64,000 nucleotides of DNA from the NCBI GenBank assembly GCA_036785375.1, contig JAWMAR010000053.1:4526001-4590000 (forward strand), in the 5' to 3' direction. Under the pieces are notes generated by a model. It worked only from the letters and a program-made list of their open reading frames with translations. It searched no databases and had not been told where the DNA came from. This document shows positions 6,701 through 47,300 of this stretch, piece after piece (the stretch's first letter is position 1; each line of letters begins with the position of its first letter). A program made the translations under genes and the position numbers. The stretch comes from Leucoraja ocellata. Taxonomy: Eukaryota.

Positions 6701-9700
6701 TTCAGCATCTGCAGTTTTTGCCCCATCGGCAAATAATAGCAGTTCATGTACCTTTCAAGATTTTGATTTGAATTGAATAATTAATTATTTGATCTTAAAC
6801 TACTGTAATATAAATGCTCGTTATGACTTTATACTTCAGGTATGCGATTGAAGTTCATTACACCACTGAAAGATCAGACAGTCAAAGAAGGCAACTCGGC
6901 TCACTTTGAAATTGAACTCTCACATGAAAATCTCCCAGTGACTTGGTACAAGAATGAAATCAAGATTCATCCAAGCAGAATTAATTTGATTACCAGTGAT
7001 GGGAAGAAGCACACGTTAGAAATTAAAGAAGTAACTCGTGATGATACATGTCAGATACGGGCAGAGGTTGCCCAGCTCTCCACGAAATGTAATCTGAATG
7101 TCATAGGTGAGGATTGAATCAAGCGATTGTTTTGAATTCTGCTGTTAATTAATGTGTTCAGATCTTAGCATAATGGTGAGGATAAAATATTAAAAAATAT
7201 TTTAAAAATAAATATGTTGTTGATGGTCAATGGGAAGTCTTAACAATGTACATTCTATTAAAGAAACAATCTTTCTTCAGGCAAAATAGTAACTTTTTCT
7301 TTGATCCACAGATGCTGACCCATATTTCACTGTGAAACTACAAGATTATACTGCTGTAGAGAGAGATGACATCAGTCTTGAATGTGAACTCAGCAAAGAA
7401 GTGCCAGTTAAATGGCTAAAGGAGGGCAATGAAATCAAAGCATCAAAAACAATTTCAATGAAAGTTATTGGGAAACGCTGTATTTTGACAATCAAAAGAG
7501 TTGACAATAAGGACAAGGGTGAATATGAATGTGACTGTGGAACTGACAAGACAAAAGCTTCTGTCAACATTGAAGGTATATACTTTATGAATGAGTATGT
7601 ATAGATATCTCATTATCAGTTTTTTTCTAAATGTGCACCTTAAACAACAATTTTTATCACTAATGTGATTACAGCTCGTATCATCAAGGTGGTACGCCCA
7701 TTGCATGGTCTAGAAATCTTCGAAGATGAAACAGCCCGCTTTGAAGTGGAGATTTCAGAAACTGATGTGCATCTCCAGTGGAAGCTGAACGGAGAAACTT
7801 TGCTCATGTCACCTGTACGTTGTTTTCTTTATTTGGTTTGAACTTAATTGTTCCTTTCTCTTTCGGAATAATTCTGCGAGAATAATTTTTGCTCAGAATT
7901 GTGCTAGTTAATTTTAATTACATACATATATATATATATATATATATAATATAGATATGTATTTGAGGTGGAAATGATTGCACAATTTTTAATATAAAAT
8001 ATTGACATCCAAATATGCCTTTACTTTATTTACAGCAATGCGAGATTGTTGAGGATGGCAAAAAACACATTCTGACTCTTTACAATTGCAAACTAAGTGA
8101 TTCTGGAGAAATTTCTTTCCAGGCTGCAAATGCTAAATCTGCAGCAAATTTGAAAGTCAAAGGTAATTTGTAATTCACTTGAAAATGCTGCAAATATTTA
8201 TCTTTTGGTGTGTTTTAGCAAATGTAGTTTCAGCTTGTATATTCTTAGCAATGGCATGAATGATTTCAGCATTTAACATAAACGGTCTATTTTTTTCAAT
8301 TTCCTGCATTTCCCTCCAGAAATTCCACTCACCTTCATTGTACCACTTGATGATGTGAAAGTATACGAGAAAGATGAAGCAAAGTTTGAATGTGAAGTGT
8401 CCAGAGAGGCTAAGACTTTCCGTTGGTTAAAAGGAAGTGAGGAAATTAAACCTAATGATAAATTTGAAATGTTAGTAGAAGGGATGAAACATACGTTAGT
8501 AGTTAAAGAAGCTGCATTTGACGATGAAGGAAAATACATGTTCGAAGCAGAGGATAAGAGGACAAGTGGCAAACTAATTATCCAAGGCAAGTAAAAGGAC
8601 CAAAACTGTAATGTCTCCAGTTAAAGCTATTTTCTTATTAATGTAGAATTAAATTCAAATCATTAATTTTTCACAGGTATACGACTTGAATTCAACAAAC
8701 CGCTCGAAGACCAGACTGTAAAGGAACGTGAAACTGCAGAATTTGTAGCTGAGCTTTCGCATGAAAGCATTCAGGTTGCATGGTACAAAAATGACATCCG
8801 TCTACATCCAAGTCGATCAGTGACAATGAAAGATGAGCCTAAGATCCATTCCATCACATTCAAGGATGTGACCATTGATGATACTTCTCTCATCAAAATT
8901 GAAGCAATGGACAAATGTTCAGAGGCTAAACTTACAGTCCTTGGTAAATGATATGTATTTAAACACACAAGTTATTTGTTAATTAGGCTTTGAACTAAAA
9001 TGCTTTATTTAATCTTCACTGCTTCTAACTTGATTCACTTTTTGATTTTCACAGAGGGTGACCCATACTTTATCAGTAAACTACAAAATTACACAGCTGT
9101 AGAAAAAGATGAAGTTGTCTTCCAGTGTGAAGTCAGTAAATCTGCTGCTCCAGTTAAATGGTTTAAGGATGAAAAAGAACTGATTCTTTCAAAGAATATT
9201 CAGATAAAAACAGATGGTCGGAAACGAATATTGATCATGAAACGAGCTATGAAGAATGATCAGGGGCAATATTCTTGTGACTGTGGCTCTGATAACACAT
9301 CAGCCAATCTAAACATCGAAGGTAAAAATTGCTGCATACCATTGTAAAGCCTATTATTCAGTGTCTTTTGGAGTTGTTTACGGATAGCACTCAGAACCAT
9401 GAAGAAAATAAATAATGGTATTTTAAACACATGTGGGTGAAATGATTGATTTCATTTTATTGCGTTTCAGAGCGTGATATTAAGATATTGCGTCCACTGT
9501 ACAGTGTTGAAGTCACAGAAACAGAAATTGCACGTTTTGAGACTGAAATTTCTGAAGATGATGTACATGGCAATTGGAAGCTGAAGGAGGAGAAATTGCG
9601 TCCTACTCCTGTAAGTTTTAACATTAGCAATTGGTGAAGTTTTGCAGAGATGCAAGGGTTGCTGATGCTGGAAATTGTTTTTTATTGAAGTTTTACCTTT

Positions 9701-12700
9701 TTGTATTCCTTCCTTAACACTTTGACTTTGTTTAATTCCAATTCAGGACTGTGAAATTAAAAAGGAAAGCACAAAACATTTTCTTATACTCTACAACGTG
9801 CAAATGGATCAAGCGGGTGAAGTTGAATTCCAGGCTGCTAATGCCAAAACCAGTGCTCATTTGAGGGTCAAAGGTAGATATGTGATTAACGTTAATTCAT
9901 CATTACTGTTACTAGTCAAGAAAAACTGCACTTGATACTTACGATTTCCCAACATTATGTTTGCCTTTTACTAATGAATATTCATAGTGACCTGAACTTA
10001 ATGAACAGCTGCAAGCCTCCCACCTAAAACCAACCGATATTTTTGTGGTTAAAGTTGCAGGTTTGCATATGGACGTCACGTATATACTAGGCCTGCATTT
10101 TTGAAAATGGCAGTCAGAAGCTGGTCACAGTTATTTAATTATTTCTGGTGTTAATTTAGGCACTAGGCCTTAAAGTAACAATGATAATAACTCTGATGTG
10201 TACCAGGGGCGGAAGACCCGGGGGGTGGGGGGGGAAGAGGGGACACGTCCCCCCCATGTTTTGAGAGGTGGGGGACATCCCACCCAAGTTTTTGTCATCC
10301 GGATTTTAAAATCTCCGCTTTCTGCGAGACAGTGGAGTTGGGACCACTGAGGGCGCCGATTGGATGGGAGAGATGTCGATCAGCAGGCAATGGGGGTGGG
10401 ACATGATGATTCAGCGCGATCATTGGAGGAGGGAGGAGTGGAGGGGGGGGGGGGGGGGGTGGGACTGAGGATAGAGTGCGATGATTGGGGGAGGGAGACG
10501 TGGCACAGACCTGCACCTCATCTCCAGCCAGGATCGATCCCGGCCGGATCTCCGGCACTGTCCCGTCCCCACCCGAGTGCCCCCCCCCCCCACGGGTGGC
10601 CAGAGAGGTCGGGAGTGAGACGCGAGCTGTACCCCCAGGCCCACAGCCAGCGCAGAGAAGCAGCGCTAAACCCAGCTCAACTGTGCCTGTCCCACCAGGT
10701 TAACCTGCCTGGGCTTGTGGGAAATATGGCCAGCGTGGAGAAGCAGCGCTGGTATCCCGTCAGTCCAGTCAGGGCTTGTAGGTTAACCCGGCGAGACAGG
10801 CAGAGTTGAGCTGCATTTAGCGCTGGATTGAGCCTCCGAAGCCTCGCGCATGTGTGTGTGAGTGTGCTCATGCGCGCGCGGCCGCCAAAAATGGTGTCCC
10901 CCCGTCCCCTCCATATTTTGATAGCGGGTTCCGTGCCTGTGTGCTTCAGACTTGCTGCTGGTTGTGTTGTTTTGCAGGGTATGGAATGTGCACTATAGGG
11001 TTTAAATTCAGTTTGTTCATATAGATAATTAAAGGGTTGTAGTCTGCTGAAAACAAAATTAAAGGGACTGTTCATCTGAAGCTAAGAGATATAAAATGTC
11101 TTTTTCATCTAAAGCTCGAGAGATCAGCTTACTCCGGCCCCTCAAGGATGTGACTGTAACTGCTGGACATTCGGCATCTTTCGATTGTGAACTATCCTAT
11201 GAAGGAATTGAAGTCCAATGGTTCTTGAAGAACAAGTTACTTGAGCCCAGTGACAGAGTATGTTGATATATATTTTATATTGTCACTTTTGTGTTTGCAT
11301 AATCCATTGTAATATAATAAACCAAGTTCCTCTCTGGTTATTTTGAATCACTTAAATACTTAAGTGCAGCAATTAAAATGTTATGTTGACTTTTTGACTC
11401 ATTGGAAAGTGTTTTGGAAAATTTTGGAAAATGGAATCAGTAAAATTTTATTCATCCTCTCATGCTTCCCCTAATCCAATAAGATCATATAATTCAGCGA
11501 CTAAGCCTTTTGAGATTGTGAACACTACTTCCAACCATCTGAACCAAGGGAATCATCATCTCTCCATCTACCAGTCAGGCCCAAAAAGACTTCTATACAT
11601 TTCAATAATGTTCTCTTATTCTTGTTTTGCACATAAAACCATGATGTCTATACCTCTAAAGATCATTTAATGTGAAAGGTAATAATTGAAAACCTCGTCA
11701 AAAAGCACTTGTCTCTTGTTGTCAACAGCTTATACAGTAATATACTTAAATTATTTTACAAAAATATAAAGGCACTGACATTTTTCTGCAAAACAAGGTC
11801 CTTCCATCAAATAGAATTAAACATATTTTACCACTTAATTCCATAGTTTCTGTTTAAATGAATTCACATCCACAGAAAATAAAAGAAGGAAATCTGTTAT
11901 ACAATACTAAAACAAAATTACTTCATGATCTAACTCTATTTTTGTTTATCTTAGTGATGGTGTTTATGGTTTACAGAAACATTACCAGAGCCATCATTTT
12001 GAGATTAAATGTACTTATGTAATTTGCTATCTTTATATAAATGATTTAATATATACCACTTCAATCTACAAATTTTGTTCAGAGTTAGGTGCCCTGTAAA
12101 ACTATATTTGTACTGATCTGAAATTTGACAGCATTGAAATATAAATGTAGCATGGAAACAAACGAGCGTTTGACTGCACTGGGCCTATATTCGCTGGAGT
12201 TTAGAAGAATGAGGGGGGAACTCGTTGAAACGTACGGAATAGTGAAAGGCTTGGATAGATTGGATGTGGAGAGGATGTTTCCACTAGTGGGAGAGTGTAG
12301 GTCTGGAGGTCAAAGCATCAGAATTAAATAACCTTTTTTTAGGAAGGAGATGAGGAGGATGACTGACCTTTGGTGTCTTTCCTCAGTGGGAAACTTTGAT
12401 TCCGCTGTGTGGGGATGTTTATGTTAAAGTCTAACATGTGCAGTGTTCTTTTTTATTTGTATGACTATAATGTAACCCAAACTTCACTGTACCAATTGAT
12501 GCATGTGACAATAAATGTCTCTTGAACTCTCTTGAACACTTGAGGAGGAATTTCTTTAGACAGAGGGTGGCGAATCTGTGGAATTATTTGCCACATGCAA
12601 ACTCAGTGGATATATTTAAGGCAGAGATAGATAGATTCTCGATTAGTACGGGTGTCAGAGGTTATGGGGAGAAGGCAGGAGAATGGGGATAGGAAGGAGA

Positions 12701-15700
12701 GATAGATCAGCCATGATTGAATGGCGGAGTGGATTTCATTGGTCGAATGGCCTAATTCTACTCCAATCACTTATGACCTTATGATCTTATGAGGAGCAAG
12801 AGATTAATTTTTGAAACACCTGAAGTGCAGGGTATAGACAGTTTGACAACAAATAGCATTCACATACATATACCACTAGGGCAAAGACATTACTGTTTGT
12901 TGTTCAAATCGTAATAATCTTAATGAAACCTCAGAATAGCATTTAAGCAAGGATCATTAAAATCAGTACTGTCCAATTTTACCGTAGTGTAGTGTCATTT
13001 TATAAAAATTAAAACTGTATACATGGTTGGCTGCTATGAAAAATAGATCCTTTGTTATCTTTTAGACTACTTAAGATAATGGACTATTAATTCTGGAGTA
13101 TTAAAATCAGATTGAAAAATAGAATAACAAAAAAATATATAATTGTTATTCAGCTTTTAATTATATACATTTGTTATCCAGAAAAATATTAGCATATAAT
13201 AAAGAGAAGGCTAAAGATAGTTCAAACATTTATGAAACTAAAATGTATGGAACTTAAATGCAATTTTTAATGTTTTGTAGCTATTAAATTTGTTAATGAC
13301 TTCAATAAATACCTCAGAGTTTAGAGAATTATAAAAGATTATTAGGATTAAAAACCAGTGGTCATTTGAACTAGATACTTTGTCTTGCCAGTAGTTAATT
13401 ACCTAGTTATTTTTCATATGACAAATACTCATATTCTCAGTTTGCTAACAGTTTCAATCTTTTATTTCGAATTAGGTTGTTACTCGCGCTGAAGGCAGAA
13501 GGCACACTTTCACTCTAAGAGACGTCCAGCTTGATGAAGCTGGTGAAGTTAAACTTACTGCTAAGGACTTTACAACATCTGCCAAGCTTATTGTTCTAGG
13601 TAAGTAATGCAACAATTCAATTAAATATCAAAATATTGTCCTTCCACAACAGTACATTTGGCATTACTTTACTTTCATTGAAATATTTCACAGAACCACC
13701 AGCTGAATTTACAAAACCTTTGGAGGACCTAACAGTTGAAGAAGAAACCTCAGCCACACTGGAGTGTGAGGTGTCCAGAGAGAATGCCGAGGTTATTTGG
13801 TTAAAGGATGGAAAGGAAATTCATAAAACCAAAAAGCATGACTTAATTGCTGATGGAAGAGTGCGAAGGCTTATTATTCATGACTGCAAACCTGAAGATT
13901 CCAAAACATATACTTGCGATGCAAAAGGCTTCAAGACTTCCTGTTTTCTCACTGTGGAACGTAAGTCTATAGTATACCATGTTCAGAGTAGAGAATTTGG
14001 TTAGATGAGCATTTAATATAGAGGGAAATGAAGGTAGTCACTTGCCTCCAGTTTCAATAGTGGTTCATGTGCTTTTTAAGGAGTAAATATGTTTTAAAAT
14101 GTACCTGCCATTTCAGTGCTTAATCAAATTAGTGTGTAAAGAAAGCAAACTGACCTAAAATAAGTAGTACACAGGAAGCAATGGCTGAGTAGATCATGTC
14201 TCTGAACTGCAGAATGTGGGAATTTGTGGACAGCAATTTCATGTCATCTGGATGTCTCTGACAGTTCAAAAACATTGAGCTGTACTGTGAGTTGGAAACT
14301 CTCAAATATAAATGGAAGAGGAATGAATAAGTAAGAGGCCCTTTTTGGAGTATTCTAAAAGGTAAATTAGGGAACAGGATTGGGGATATTTTATTAGAAT
14401 TGTTATCGGAGTCCCAAATAAATTGGCATAGGGTAAGCAGATTAAGACATTAAACTTGTGTTTGAAGGAGCATTGTGGGGAAGAGAGTTCTTTCACAGGG
14501 CACTGAGAATGTAAAGAAATGTATCACTGGGAGTGCGCTTAAATTGTACTGGAATTAGGGATATAGTATAAAGATAGATCATAAGTAAAGGGAAAGACTT
14601 GGGGAAAGAGGTAGTAATCATTTTAAAACAAGCAAGAAGCCAGAGAGTTCTTAAATTATTAAAAAATTATCCCTCAACTATCATAGTAAAAGCTAAGTGC
14701 TGTGTTTGAGGGTTAGTGTTGAGGCATTGACTCAAGAGGTTTCAGCGAATGGGAAGAACAAAATGTGACATCAAGTTAAGGACTTGTTTAAGTGACTTCC
14801 TTCTTTCATCAAAGTGCAGTAAGAATGGCAGTTAGAGCATTGGTATGCTGCACTTGCAGGCTGTGGAAAGTCAGGGAATCTTCCAGTATCTTCTGGACTC
14901 CATCTGTGAGAATTGCGCCCAGCTGCAGCTTCTGACTGACCGTGAGGAAAACGCAGTTGAAGTTCGATGAACTCAGGATTTTCTGCGAAATGAGATACAG
15001 TGAGGTGATCACACCTTAGATGCAGGCAGAAAATAAATAGGTGACCACCAGGAAGGATAAAAGGAATAGGATGGAGTGCAGGAATCTCCTGTGCCCATTC
15101 CCCTTGAAAGCACATATGCCTTTTTGGATACAAAATCTATTTATTATAGAGGGAAATGAAGGTAGTCACTTGCCTCCAGTTTAAATAGTGGTTCATGTGC
15201 TTTTTAAGGAGTAAATATGTTTTAAAATGTACCTGCCATTTCAGTGCTTAATCAAATTAGTGTGTAAAGAAAGCAAACTGACCTAAAATAAGTAGTACAC
15301 AGGAAGCAATGGCTGAGTAGATCATGTCTCTGAACTGCAGAATGTGGGAATTTGTGGACAGCAATTTCATGTCATCTGGATGTCTCTGACAGTTCAAAAA
15401 CATTGAGCTGTACTGTGAGTTGGAAACTCTCAAATTAATGACATTATAAATTGTAATGTGACTGCCAATAAGAAAGTCTGTTTCTTTCATAGCTCCTCAT
15501 GTTGAATTTACAAAGCCACTCACTGATCTTGAGGTGAAAGAAAAGGAGGTTGCGAAATTTGTATGTGAAGTTTCCCGTGAAAGTGCAAAGGTTTGTCTTT
15601 ATTTAAATCATCATATCTGTTTGTGTTTTTAAATGATGTTAATAAGTCAGTAACTTATATTTAAGCAAGTTATATTCAAGTTCTACTCAATACCGCAAGA

Positions 15701-29346: not shown

Positions 29347-32300
29347 CCCTGATTGTTATAGATCTGATAATGAAAAATAATTTTCATTATATAATATTCT
29401 TTGTGAAAGTTTTGTGAAAAAGTTTTTAATTTGATCCCATACATTTTTCAGCTGTTCCAGATCCACCAGAAAATGTCAGATGGAGAGATCCAAGCGCCAG
29501 TGGAATCTTCCTTACATGGGACCCACCAAAATATGATGGAGGTTCAAAAATTAAAGGCTACTTAATAGAGAAATGTCAACGTGGTGGTGAAAAGTGGGAG
29601 GGATGTGGAGATCCAGTTAATGAATTGAAGTAAGATTATATGTCTAATTTTCTTATGTTTACTATGTTTTAATTAATGCAAAATAAACACTAATGCTGCA
29701 TTTATGTTGAATAGGGCGGAAGTGACCCGCCTCACAGAAGGTCAATGGTACTCATACCGGGTTAAAGCTTTGAATAGACAAGGTGCCAGCAGACCTAGTA
29801 TACCTACAGATGATATACTAGCTATTGATCCAAAAGGTACATAGTTACTAACAAATATAAAACCAATGTTTCCAAATCACCGTTTTACTAAAGCCAGTCC
29901 TTTAATAATACATTCCAATCCTTTTAATAAATGTAGACAGATTTATATCATAAATGTTAACATTGTAATAAATTAAGTCACTATTGCAAGTTATTTTATT
30001 CATGAAGAAATATTTTGGTAAAGAATATAATTCAAGGTTACCTAAATTAGTGATGCTATATCTGAGTATTACTGATAATTTTTTGTTCGATGCAACAGTT
30101 ATGGGTTGTGTAATTAGCACACTTTACTGATGCTTCTAATTTGCAATTAATTGGTATTCATGATTCATATATTAATGTCAAATGTGTCTCCACAAATGGA
30201 GATGGCAAAACTAAACGACCTTCAGTTTTCTTTTTTTAAATGGATCAATTTTTACCAAATTAATAATGTCTTCTTTGTTTATTACAGTGAGTCCAGAGAT
30301 TCATCTTGACGTTAAGTTGCTTGCTGGCATTACTGTGAAGGCTGGCACAAAGATTGAGCTCCCAGCTGTTATCTCTGGTAAACCTGATCCTAGAATTACT
30401 TGGACAAAGGCTGAACACCTTCTGAAGCCTGACAACAGAATAGTTATTGACACCAAACCTGATCGTTCCATTGTAACAATCTCAGATACCATGAGATCTG
30501 ATAGTGGTACCTATATTATTGAAGCAGTAAACACTGGTGGCCGTGCCACTGCAGTTGTGGAAGTGAACATTCTAGGTAATTCAATTATTCAATCATTATT
30601 TACAATCAGATCTATAATTTGCCTATGGGAAAAATATCTACATATTTTAACATTTTGTTTTTACAGACAAGCCTGGTCAACCAGCTGCATTTGATATCAC
30701 TGATATTACAAACGAATCCTGTAACTTGACATGGAATCCACCCAGAGATGATGGTGGTTCACGCATTACAAATTACATTATGGAATATAAAGTTGGAACC
30801 AGTGAGCTATGGAACAAACTTTCTTCCACTATCAAAGAAACCAAATTCAAGGCAACAAATCTTAAACCACTAAAAGAATATACATTCAGAGTTTTGGCTG
30901 AAAACATGTATGGTATTGGAGAGCCAGCTCAGCATGCTCCAATAATAGCAAAGTATGCTTTTGGTAAGGAAAATACAGTACAATGATGTAAATTATAATT
31001 GAGACATTTGTTCTGTTTTTACATATTTCACACTTAAATGTTTTTAAAACCCATGGATATATGATTGTACATTAGATCCACCTGGTGCTCCAACAAATTT
31101 AAAAGGTTCAGATATTATTAAAGATTCACTGACGCTGTCGTGGTATGAACCTGAAGAAGATGGTGGTAGCCCAATCACTGGATACTTTATTGAAAAATAT
31201 GATGTCAACAATGATAAATGGCAAAGATGCAACAAGATACCTATCAAAGACACTAGCTTCAGGTATTTATGATGCATGAACCTAATTTTCAAAAACTCTG
31301 AAGCCGTGATAACATGACAGTTTTACTTATTCTTTGAGGACTAATTGATCTTCCAAAACTTACCTCTTGGCTCAACAAAACAAAGCTCTATTCCTTTTCT
31401 GTTTTTTGGGGCCATAAGAAACTAATTAAATTAATTTTGCTTACACGCCTATATGGCCTCTCTCCTGCCTGGCTCGATGGCAACACCATTGTTATATTCC
31501 CATTCGGGAGATCAACTAAAATTTGAGTCAGACTGCCTATATGAAGAAGAAGGCTGCTACCTCGTCCTTGTTTTGCTTTCCCTTGCTCAAAACAATAGGC
31601 TAACAGAAGGTACTAAGAATCCATCAATACAGTAGCAGGATCAAAATGTGGCTGTAAATGCGCTCATGTTAATTAATCCATTGTTGGGTTTTTATCTGCA
31701 AGTATCATGTAAACCTGACAGGAGTCTATTACTAAAATGAAAGAGCAATTGGAAAATAATACAGGCATTTCCCATATTACATAAGGGTTCAATTTCTGAG
31801 AACTGTCTGCAAATCTATTTTTTCATATGTCAGTAATGTTTGTTTGTTATAACTGTTCATTATTATTTTGCCCAACATGCACTTGCTATAATTCATCATT
31901 TAAACACATTTCTTCTATATTCATCCCCTTAATTAAACTCATGGAACATATTCAGTTTTTAATAAATACCACAAAACTTTCCTCTTAGACCTCTGTTAAA
32001 ACTCCTCCATCTCGCCTTAAACCTATGACTTGTTTTTAACAATCTGTAAATTATTCTATCTACCTTATCTAGGCCTTTGATTTGATCCCACGCAAAAATT
32101 GTTATAGAAATTTAAAGCATTTCAGATTGAGGATAATATACTTGCATGGCTGGAGGGTTGATTAAGCAACAAGAAAGCAATAGCAATAAATGTGTTACTT
32201 TCACTTCCTTCGGCTGTAACGAGCAGCATGTGGCAAAGAACATGTGGCTGGGATCATAGCTGTTCACCATCTGTATTACTAAATTCAGTAAGGGAATTAC

Positions 32301-41300: not shown

Positions 41301-44300
41301 GTTTTCATTCATACTACCAAAAAATGGACATTGGCATATGCATCACATGTTCTGTTTCTCCCCCAAAGATCCTCCAGGTGCTCCCTCCTGTCCTGAAGTC
41401 ACTGACAAAACTAAAAATACTATAAAGCTTGCATGGAAATCCCCAGAAAAGGATGGCCACAGCCCAATTCAAGGTTATATTGTCGAGATGCAGGAAGAAG
41501 GTTCACCTGATTGGAAAAGAGCATCAGAGCCAGATAAATTAATTCCTAAATGTGAATATGAAGTGCCCAATTTACAAACACTCAAGAAATACAGGTTCCG
41601 GATTAAAGCTGTTAATGCTGTAGGAGAATCTGAACCAAGTTTATCCACTTCAGAAATAATTATGAAGGAAACACTAGGTAAGCACTTTTAGATTCTTACG
41701 ACTGTTCAAATGTACATTTTGTTGGACATCCCAACATATTTTTCTTTGTGATTTGCAGAGGAACCCGATATCACATTGGATGTTGGTGCACAAGACTTCC
41801 TTAGTTGTCTTGCAGGACCGCCTTTGAGAATCCCAGCTATTGTAACAGGCCGTCCTTTTCCAAAGATCAGTTGGGAATTTGAAGGACCAACTAAAACAGT
41901 TATCAAGGTAAAAATATTTGAATTATATGTAAGTGCAATCATTTAGGTTTCCTGAATAGACTGGGAGCCATCTAATTTCTATATCCTTTGGATATATGAG
42001 GGATGTGCTCCAGGATATTATGATAGGGAAATAACAAAAGGTAATGTATTGCTCCAATTATTTAAATGTATCCAAAGGTTAATTTTCCTCCTTATGGAAT
42101 CTTCAGAATGTAACACATTCCCAAAACAAAAATAAATATCAATCTGATCACCCTGTATCATTTAATCCAAATATGTAATGGTAGGAATTGATTAGAAGTC
42201 AAAAGTAATTATATTAACATGTCTTCAACATATTAGATCAAATTTTTAAAGCTTAATTCTAGAATCAGTTACAGCCCAAAGCATGAATGTTGTTTTCTGT
42301 AGTTTGTACTACATAATCACCAATTGTTCAACATTTGGAAGACTAATTAATTAGGGCCCCCAGCTGGCATTCTGGTAGAAAGAAACCTCAAAAATGTTCA
42401 CTTGCCACAAATAGAACAATCCCAATTGGTTCTCTCACAATAAGATGCACACTCAGTAAAATCATCTTACTCTCAGCAGATCATTGTCTTCTGGGATTAA
42501 TGTCATGGTGGATTATTTAAGGATACTTTATCTGAGGGTGGGAAAAATATGAGTCTTAAATTAGCAATCTACCAATAAAAGTTGTATTTTAATGAAACTG
42601 TGACCTGTTTTCCCCCAAAGTATGTTAACAAAAGTGCTTCTGTTTAAACAGATTGGAAATGTTGACTTGCTAAGCAGCTCAGGTCAAATTTTGCTCGATT
42701 TTGTTAGGTCTGGATGCCAAACTAAATTCGACATTCGGCCTCATTGAAATAGATGAGGTGATTCTGTGCCATTGTGGTATTTTAATGCACCAGGCCTCTC
42801 ATGAAATCCAGATAGCGCCAATGATGAGTTAGCTCAAATAAATTGGTAAAGGGAGTGCAGGTGAACGTGTGTGGGAAAATCTGGATATGTGATAATCAGC
42901 AGTAATTATGTGAAGCACTTCACACAAAAATTAGAACTTAATATTTTCTGAGAAAGTTTTTTTTTTTTAATTGGCTCTGCACGGCCTTTATGGAACACTA
43001 TTTGGGCTATTCAGCACTTGATAAAGCTGAATGGTGCCAGAACCCAATCAGCAAAGTAAAGCAGGCTTTTTTCCTATTTTTGGAAGCCAGGGCATTGACT
43101 CATTTAGAATCCTACATGAATATAATATCACAAGATTCTTAGCTATCAGAATCACAGCTGATTGGCTCCCGTCCATTTCTACCTCATTGATACTCTGTTT
43201 TTCAGCACATAGCATTCAGTAATAAAATGCATTTTTCACTCATTGACCACAAAGAGAAATGTAGTTTGTTAAAGAGTTTCACAGCACAGGAACTGGTACT
43301 TTGGTTCACCACATCCGTGCTGACCTTTTTGCCTACATGCACTAATTTCATTTGTCCACATAAGGCTCATAATCCTTTTATGCCTTGGCTGTTTAAGTTC
43401 CTGTCTAAGTATCTCTTAAATTGTGATTGTATCTGAATCCACTGCAGTTGTAACTTCAGTAAGATTAGCATAACCTAGAACAAAATACTGAAAAGATAAT
43501 CTTCAGATGTCTTTTTTCTGGAGCATCGCATGGAGGTCCACATATATCACTTCTGGCAAAAGTTCTCTGCCAAAAGAGGATTGTAACCAAGTAATAGACC
43601 ATCCATTCTCAATGGTTATTTTCTAGGAATTTCTCTGGGTCCTTCATATTTAAACTTCTCATTAAAATAAAATTTACATTTTATGACAAGCCAGCATGAG
43701 AGCAAGCTGCCCCATTTTAGATGAGAAGTTTGAATTACATTGGTGCTAATAGAAACATAGAAACATAGAAATTAGGTGCAGGAGTAGGCCATTCGGCCCT
43801 TCGAGCCTGCACCGCCATTCAATATGATCATGGCTGATCATCCAACTCAGTATCCCGTACCTGCCTTCTCTCCATACCCCCTGATCCCCTTAGCCACAAG
43901 GGCCACATCTAACTCCCTCTTAAATATAGCCAATGAACTGGCCTCAACTACCCTCTGTGGCAGAGAGTTCCAGAGATTCACCACTCTCTGTGTGAAAAAA
44001 GTTCTTCTCATCTCGGTTTTAAAGGATTTCCCCCTTATCCTTAAGCTGTGACCCCTTGTCCTGGACTTCCCTAACATCGGGAACAATCTTCCTGCATCTA
44101 GCCTGTCGAACCCCTTAAGAATTTTGTAAGTTTCTATAAGATCCCCTCTCAATCTTCTAAATTCTAGAGAGTATAAACCAAGTCTATCCAGTCTTTCTTC
44201 ATAAGACAGTCCTGACATCCCAGGAATCAGTCTGGTGAACCGTCTCTGCACTCCCTCTATGGCAATAATGTCCTTCCTCAGATTTGGAGACCAAAACTGT

Positions 44301-47300
44301 ACGCAATACTCCAGGTGTGGTCTCACCAAGACCCTGTACAACTGCAGTAGAACCTCCCTGCTCCTATACTCAAATCCTTTTGCAATGAAAGCTAACATAC
44401 CATTCGCTTTCTTTACTGCCTGCTGCACCTGCATGCCTACCTTCAATGACTGGTGTACCATGACACCCAGGTCTCGCTGCATCTCCCCCTTTCCCAATCG
44501 GCCACCATTTAGATAATAGTCTGCTTTCCCGTTTTTGCCACCAAAATGGATAACCTCACATTTATCACATAATGTTTTGACAGATCTGTGCAGTTAACAC
44601 AACTGATTCATCTTCAATCAGTTAGGTTGTGTTATGTATGATGTTAGGTTTAGATCAGCATCAAGACAATATAAAATGATGCCACATACACCATGGGTAT
44701 AACAACATCCAGCATGACATAATGGCACAGGAATTCAGGGCAAGCGTAACGTGAAATCTTCATCTAAACAAATTTAGATTAAGCAAAACTTGTAACAATT
44801 GATATTTTACTCTTTATAGGATGAAGTGCATAGAGTACCAGCTGATGCTCAGGTAATAACATGATTTATGATATATGAAAGTCTCATATATGAAATTGCA
44901 AAAATGATATTTGCATTTTACTGGATTATAATTCTTCCCTTTGCCTTTTATAGGTTGAATGTGCAGATACTAAGACAGCTGTGATTATTCCAGCATGCAA
45001 TAGAACCCACTCTGGTCGATACAGTATTACTGCTAAGAACAAGGCTGGTCAAAAGACATTACATGTCAGAGTAAATGTTCTTGGTATGTAATTGTTTTCT
45101 TCAATTTATTTGAAATAGAATGAATTGCAGTAGTTTGATATGATTCTTAAATTTTCTTTTACATGTAATAGATATGCCAGGACCACCAAAAGATCTCAAA
45201 GTGACTGATATTACAAGGAGTTCCTGCAGACTTTCATGGAAGGCTCCAGACAATGATGGTGGAGACAGAATTAAATGTTACTTTATAGAGAAAAAGACTG
45301 TGGAAGGAAAGGCTTGGGTAAAAGTTAATACTTCCTGTTTAGGCACATCATATCTTGTGCCTGATCTTATTGATGGGCAGGAATATTTCTTCCGTGTCCG
45401 TGCAGAAAACCGATTTGGCGTAGGTCCACCCGTGGAAACTATTCAGAGGACTAGAGCGAGAGATCCAATTCGTAAGTTTCTGGTTTATAATATACACTAA
45501 TATATTTCAGATATCCGCACAACTTCAGTTAGCCATTTTTTAACTAATTTACTTTTATACTTCAGATCCTCCTGAGCCACCAACAAAACTCAAAGTTGCT
45601 TTGATTACCAAGAACACAGTTTCACTTACTTGGAGACCTCCAAAGAATGACGGTGGGTCTCCAGTAACACATTACATTATTGAAAGTCTTGCCGTGGATC
45701 CAACGGGACAAAAGAAGGAATCCTGGAAAAAGTGCAATAGACGTGATGTGGAAGAAACCAAGTTTACAGTAGAAGATCTCACTGAGGGTGGCGAGTATGA
45801 ATTCCGTGTAAAAGCAGTTAATGAGGCTGGCATCAGTAAACCATGTAACTCTGTTGGGCCTATAATTGTGAAAGACCAGACATGTAAGTATTTACATAAT
45901 TACATCATAACAGACCAATGTGAATATAGTGAATTCAAAATATAAATGTTTCTAAACCACAATTAATATTTTCACGTCTAGGTCCACCTGCAATTGAACT
46001 TAAAGAATTCTTAGAGGCAGAACAGCATACAGACATTAACATCATTGCCAAAGTGAAGGGCACACCATTCCCAACATTGACTTGGTACAAAGCACCTGTC
46101 AATAAACCAGAAGAAAAATCTAAAGTAGAATACGATCAGCATGTCAACAAAATTGTGACTGAGGATGGTTGCACTCTACTTATTCATCAGTCTCTTCGGA
46201 AGGACACTGGTCTTTATACTCTCACTGCCACAAACAGCTTGGGAACTGATTCTAAGGAAATGAGACTCAATGTTCTAGGTAATTTTTATATTATTTCCAT
46301 AAATTCTTCATTTTGTTTATGCATTCCTGTCATTTTACTATAAACTATAGTTTTTGTTTCTTATTGAATAGGACACCCTGGTCCTCCATTGGGTCCAATT
46401 AAATTTGAGGGAATTAGTGCTGAGAAAATGACTCTTTCATGGCTACCTCCAAAAGATGATGGCGGCTCCAAGATCACCAACTACGTTATTCAGAAAAGAG
46501 AAGCAAGTAGGAAGTCTTGGATTCAAGTTACCAGCGATGTTAAGGAGTGCATGTGCGAAGTCCCCAAGTTATTGGAAGGACACGAATATGTATTCCGCAT
46601 TATGGCTCAGAATAAATATGGTATTGGTGAACCACTTGACAGCGAACCGGAGACAGCAAGAAATTTGTTTAGTATGTATCAAAATAATTTTTCCTACAAT
46701 TTTTATACTTTGATCTTGCTAACATTATATGTATATCCAATATTATCCAATTTTATGGACGTAAAATTGTTTAGTGGTATTTTCTAAGTTCTCAGTTTAG
46801 TGGTATTTCTGTTCAAATTTTAACAAACAATTGCAGGGTGTCTAATTGTGATCACTCTAACAAATATAATCTGTTTTTTTATGCATATTTCCTAAAATAT
46901 CTTATAAAGTTAAATTTTCTAAATTTGACTTCAGGATTACTACCTTGTATATTAAAACATATATTTTTTAACAGCTGTACCTGGAGCTTGTGACAAGCCA
47001 ACTGTGGGTGGTGTGAAACGTGAAAGCATGATAGTCAATTGGGAAGAACCAGAATATGATGGTGGCTCTCCAGTAACTGGCTACTGGTTAGAGCGTAAAG
47101 ATACCTCTGGAAAGAGGTGGAACAGGGTAAATCGCGATCCAATTAGGATTATGCCACTTGGAGTATCCCATCAAGTAACTGACCTTATAGAAGGCTCATT
47201 TTATCAGTTCCGTGTGTTTGCCATCAATGCAGCAGGTGTTGGGCCTCCAAGCATACCTTCCGACCCAATAATGGCAAGAGATCCAATAGGTGAGCATTTT

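Follow-up and report, generated by a model that had tools for sequence, protein, structure and literature searches.

Introduction

Cronos is a titin isoform that starts from a promoter inside the gene, and was described from zebrafish ttna (ttn.2), mouse Ttn and human TTN (Zou et al., 2015, PMC4720518). According to that paper, the zebrafish transcript starts 110 bp before exon e116, with its Met 7 codons upstream of the exon, and the mammalian one starts 256-257 bp before human e240 or mouse e223, with its Met 12 codons upstream. Human Cronos is given as 2.2 MDa in PMC11033294, and zebrafish Cronos is reported as high in embryos and at ~1:30 to 1:70 of full-length titin in adults. It has also been proposed that the isoform explains the greater harm done in dilated cardiomyopathy by titin truncations in the A-band, compared with N-terminal truncations (PMC4720518, PMC5068190). 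According to PMC12854356, descriptions of Cronos are limited to zebrafish ttn.2, mouse and human.

The closest described gene from a cartilaginous fish is the single titin of the elephant shark, which resembles mammalian titin in the layout of its distal Ig domains and A-band; the accessible text of that study covers N2BA, N2A and Novex exons, contains the word Cronos nowhere and examines no internal promoter (PMC12241362). Among papers on titin evolution, the available text of one likewise has no occurrence of Cronos, and that of another has it for human isoforms only. No report of Cronos in cartilaginous fish was found in the largely open-access literature searched, so that a prior mention elsewhere is possible.

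Here, we describe a candidate Cronos start in the titin gene of a skate, Leucoraja ocellata, the one cartilaginous-fish genome examined. With a probability of roughly 0.7, we read the ATG at 11096 as the elasmobranch orthologue of the Cronos start codon, in use from a predicted promoter in the intron. This reading builds on intron orthology, splice sites, an open frame and leader similarity, which are established. Like its bony-vertebrate counterparts, the candidate is an in-frame Met that lies in the orthologous intron, a few codons upstream of the exon; it differs from them in having a transposon-like element in the intron, and in being known from sequence alone.

The titin gene and the orthology of the intron

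The window analysed is a stretch of 64 kb (positions 4526001-4590000 of contig C53) in an assembly of 3.44 Gb, and the titin sequence on its + strand spans the end of the PEVK region and the distal I-band run of Ig domains and extends into the A-band. The exon at 7675 has its top PDB matches with titin I27, which we take to be I91, and counting onward from there identifies 9471-9873 as I95 and 11115-13599 as I96. The PDB holds no structure of I96 itself. The relevant exons and the intron between them are as follows.

9471-9610, + strand: titin exon that encodes the first half of I95 and is orthologous to e114 of zebrafish ttna (gRNA-e114 has its top match in the window at 9489, with 17/18 nt; exon joints in contigs)
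9747-9873, + strand: titin exon that encodes the second half of I95 and is orthologous to zebrafish e115, mouse e222 and human e239 (gRNA-e115 matches 16/18 nt at 9749; the e115 and e222/239 primers, translated, match best at 9843 and 9849)
9874-11114, + strand: intron orthologous to the Cronos promoter intron, with a GT donor and a rare AAG acceptor
11115-11257, + strand: titin exon that encodes the first half of I96 and is orthologous to zebrafish e116, mouse e223 and human e240 (the translation of gRNA-e116, CELSY, matches best at 11186; spliced in contigs; present once in the assembly)
13476-13599, + strand: next titin exon, second half of I96 (joint 11256-13475 in run X4)

Published Cronos primers and gRNAs for e114, e115, e222/239 and e116 thus find their best or joint-best window match in the three exons that flank the intron. 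By this mapping, the intron is the orthologue of the Cronos intron between zebrafish e115 and e116, and between human e239 and e240. Two further primers, dr_e116_nest and mm_e223/224_r, do not have the I96 exon among their top four window matches, and an ungapped search of the window placed neither of the two intronic Cronos primers. The original prediction, which had put the Cronos intron at the I95/I96 boundary, is borne out by the primers on both sides; that the Cronos start of bony vertebrates lies in this same intron follows from the primers and from the zebrafish, human and mouse exon numbers in PMC4720518.

An alpha-globin exon of the assembly, used as a marker of clade, scores 78.6 bits on PDB 1cg5_A (presumably stingray) and 59.8 on 1gcv_A (presumably houndshark), and at most 56.7 on the other single-domain chains listed, which makes the animal probably an elasmobranch, perhaps a ray. 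Other features of the assembly and the window were noted in passing. Esterase and globin matches often come as near-identical pairs (contigs C111, C247/C357, C156/C1001 and C48), unlike the single I96 exon of titin, which suggests retained haplotigs or duplications. Introns of the window, for example at 12090-12857 and 43850-44593, contain retroelement fragments of very high copy number as judged by contig depth, and a reverse-strand frame of 248 aa presumably corresponds to the end of a LINE reverse transcriptase.

Splicing of the intron

Assembled contigs from 4 of 16 sequencing runs were compared, of which X1, X2 and X4 are presumed to be RNA and X14 DNA. Contigs of all three presumed RNA runs join 9873 to 11115 across the GT..AAG intron, and the AAG acceptor at 11114 is therefore real; the joint is absent from X14, in which the I96 exon is uncovered. 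None of the contigs listed covers 10940-11110, where contigs, which drop rare forms, cannot reveal starts. Assemblies of adult tissue would easily miss Cronos at an adult level as low as that of zebrafish.

An AAG acceptor is found at just 4 of the 87 acceptors of the window (curated by score and domain start, one uncertain first exon excluded), yet it is common to the skate intron and a teleost titin locus, L002. The tetranucleotide AAAG terminates both the upstream exon (9870-9873) and the intron (11111-11114), so that full-length titin and the predicted Cronos would have the same Lys-Ala junction. A strong acceptor-like sequence, a long pyrimidine run followed by CAG, lies at 10951-10977, 137 nt upstream of the AAG acceptor in use; if used in full-length transcripts it would shift the frame, and it is absent among the contig joints listed.

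The start codon, the proximal intron and the mobile element

The end of the intron and its upstream neighbourhood contain four features.

10004-10078, + strand: E-box (10004) and CRE-like site (10071-10078), sequence motifs only, distal, beyond the transposon
10204-10939, strand not assigned: non-autonomous DNA-transposon-like element of 736 bp, GC 62% (repeat copies, terminal inverted repeats, 8-bp target duplications)
10940-11095, + strand: proximal unique intron DNA, putative core promoter and 5′ UTR (from the distances of Zou et al. and the positions of the ATG and motifs)
11096-11114, + strand: candidate start codon of Cronos and its leader of 6 codons, MSFSSK, in sequence that overlaps the polypyrimidine tract and the AAG acceptor (leader comparison, open frame)

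The original prediction described this start accurately. The ATG (11096-11098) has A at -3 and follows an in-frame TAA at 11060, and the nearest earlier ATG, at 10986, lies 107 nt upstream. The leader is open into the I96 exon, which it enters as MSFSSK/AR, and the polypyrimidine tract and the acceptor joined in contigs would double as coding sequence. In full, the frame reads MSFSSK followed by AREISLLRPLKD; unspliced, it meets a stop after 56 aa, in the next intron. Trypsin would leave only SFSSK of the predicted N-terminal peptide, so that the peptide suggested earlier for mass spectrometry, (M)SFSSKAR, requires another protease.

The muscle-type motifs that the original prediction listed are all present (the E-box, the CRE-like site, an M-CAT at 10983 and a GATA at 11023), but carry little weight as evidence for a promoter. 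Within 175 nt of the acceptor, an M-CAT core occurs at 8 of the 87 acceptors, GATA at 33 and both at 5, which are chance-like rates; none of the motifs recurs in the Cronos intron of a teleost, and the 736-bp element separates the E-box and CRE-like site from the ATG. We therefore set the cluster aside. The proximal part of the teleost intron of L002 has no M-CAT, E-box or MEF2 core, and alignment of the promoter DNA with that intron gave no convincing similarity (shuffle p 0.68, 0.81 and 0.85), a single match at p=0.04 being a T-rich stretch ~870 nt from the teleost acceptor. Promoter sequence and motifs common with the bony-vertebrate Cronos intron were thus not found, in a comparison that is a weak test, with one teleost-type intron at deep divergence, and that concerns no published defining feature of Cronos. 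A perfect 10-mer around the M-CAT (10981-10990), which resembles the TEAD consensus, is unique in the window and was singled out after being seen. A TATAAAA at 11090 was rejected as the TATA box of this start as it lies too near the ATG.

The element at 10204-10939, overlooked in the original prediction, is presumably hAT-like, going by the class rule for terminal inverted repeats and 8-bp target duplications, and its ends and target duplications were read by eye in 2 of 5 copies. Among the 40 candidates scored, of 5528 in the assembly, 39 are other full-length copies. This high-copy element of ~740 bp also contains internal palindromic segments. Its insertion raises the possibility that the ATG and leader descend from the ancestral Cronos as a genuine relic, the promoter of which is weakened or silent here, the transposon having cut off upstream enhancers or entered the 5′ UTR. 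The copies are 86-90% identical, and the element ends 156 nt before the ATG, inside the 256-nt distance of the mammalian Cronos start, so that a mammal-like start would fall within it; the E-box and CRE-like site now lie ~1 kb off, and two short out-of-frame upstream ORFs (10981 and 10986) precede the ATG. Against this, a start 110 nt before the exon, as in zebrafish, would be near 11005, downstream of the element and with no ATG in the 5′ UTR, and the ATG, the purine at -3 and the ATG-free 107 nt are intact despite an insertion that is ~10% diverged from its family. We consider such a silent remnant unlikely, and prefer a start codon that is in use.

The leader and its conservation

An in-frame ATG before an exon is unremarkable on its own, as the original prediction had cautioned: 13 of the 87 acceptors have one within 15 codons, and 10 have one at 5-9 codons. 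The leader is more distinctive. In translation, the zebrafish Cronos primers give the leader MSSPESK and an AAAG/C junction, and the skate has MSFSSK and the same junction; both leaders start with MS and end with SK, and they differ in length (6 codons in the skate versus 7 in zebrafish and 12 in mammals). Scored against the zebrafish-type leader MSSP[QE]SK, the skate leader reaches 10, the highest among the 13 in-frame ATG leaders of the window, the next being 5 and 4. In a null drawn from the per-position base frequencies of the gene's other phase-1 acceptors, which models base composition and not the conserved geometry around the branch point, this score was reached in 1.4e-4 of 200,000 draws, per intron. 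The likeness comprises six residues only, whose composition is partly dictated by splicing. By this comparison it is the leader match, at an intron fixed beforehand by orthology, that exceeds chance, and a resemblance of ATG and leader to the bony-vertebrate Cronos start beyond chance is supported.

The Met is also kept in homologues, the lineage labels of which are inferred. Of 44 homologous genomic ORFs (cluster representatives of matches to the I96 exon), 42 have it at a distance of exactly 7 codons upstream, and it lies at 5-12 codons in 34 of 38 representatives clustered at 50% identity, which have at least 27 of 48 residues identical and include one spliced protein and six sequences already among the 44. 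Three of these representatives have 12-codon leaders with endings like [FP][LS]SSRK, a length that equals the mammalian distance in Zou et al.; a mouse Cronos primer translates as RHFVSS, in line with leaders of this type. Since gene callers favour ORFs that have a start, we examined as a control the exon at 30288, which has a chance leader beginning with MSS. Its homologues have a Met at 5-12 codons in 8 of 34 cases, at scattered offsets, one of them being a near-identical copy of the query. Where the called start lies at least 16 codons upstream, and the Met was thus not picked by the caller, it is present in 8 of 11 homologues of the I96 exon versus 1 of 10 of the control (Fisher p=0.008, among relatives that are not independent).

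In each of two fish-type titin loci of one assembly, L002 and L003, a true ATG is found 22 nt upstream of the acceptor. L003 (93-114) belongs to a second sequence class, in which the exon starts with ARSI and which is probably, to judge by sequence, the ttn.1/ttnb duplicate; in the parts of the literature available, Cronos is known for ttn.2 only and none is described for ttn.1. Ten proteins of the ARSI class (P0176, P0189, P0195, P0196, P0198, P0204, P0206, P0207, P0210 and P0213) have a Met 5-11 codons upstream and a Ser-rich leader, and two (P0185 and P0197) are without an upstream Met. Neither the protein searches nor the search of 50%-identity representatives contained a recognisable copy of the Cronos intron from another cartilaginous fish. 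A metagenome scan for copies of the intron gave six loci, two of vertebrate titin and four weak and unrelated, a viral scan gave no match, and a pattern scan of prokaryote genomes gave two chance bacterial matches.

That the ATG between branch point and acceptor arose by chance, the likeness of its leader being a product of splicing-conserved sequence and Cronos an invention of bony vertebrates, is quite unlikely: the frequency of ATGs at 5-9 codons, the AAG acceptor and K-ending leader at 41369, the MSS leader at 30288 and the lack of promoter DNA conservation with the teleost intron are in its favour, but the intron was chosen by orthology and not for its ATG, the composition-matched null seldom yields an equally similar leader, and homologues of the control exon do not keep its ATG at a constant offset.

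Discussion

Under the preferred reading, that of a Cronos start codon in use, the final ~150 nt of the intron would contain a muscle promoter, and transcripts from it would continue into the I96 exon unspliced. The 19 nt that precede this exon would have a dual use: in full-length titin pre-mRNA they would serve as polypyrimidine tract and AAG acceptor, with a branch-point candidate upstream of them at 11082-11085, and in Cronos mRNA as start codon and leader. In the window, L002 and L003 alike, the ATG lies just past a branch-point-like YTRA, and the leader codons coincide with the polypyrimidine tract. Such dual use would explain why vertebrate leaders are short and rich in Ser, Phe and Pro, and why the last residue of most is K, Q or E, whose codons are compatible with an AAG acceptor. 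As splicing downstream would be common to both forms, the predicted product would begin at I96 and extend to the M-line, lacking the Z-disc and spring regions of titin. To judge by zebrafish, the predicted skate Cronos is likely to be most abundant in embryonic muscle, and to aid sarcomere assembly.

The original prediction further held that Cronos may predate the split between cartilaginous and bony fish. Intron orthology, the leader match and the Met kept in homologues speak for this proposal; the support from motifs falls away, and promoter DNA similarity to the teleost intron was not seen. On the sequence comparisons made here, Cronos is likely to be as old as jawed vertebrates. We also lean towards the fuller view that it is ancestral to jawed-vertebrate titin, its start and leader having persisted within a functional 3′ splice site from a time before the divergence of sharks and bony fish, with both teleost titin duplicates, and not only ttn.2, retaining the start.

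The finding would extend a known mechanism rather than reveal a new one. If the start is conserved in cartilaginous fish, the isoform would have been under selection since the base of the jawed vertebrates, which argues for a real developmental role, and the skate, if its start is true, would provide a distant outgroup for locating the promoter elements of Cronos.
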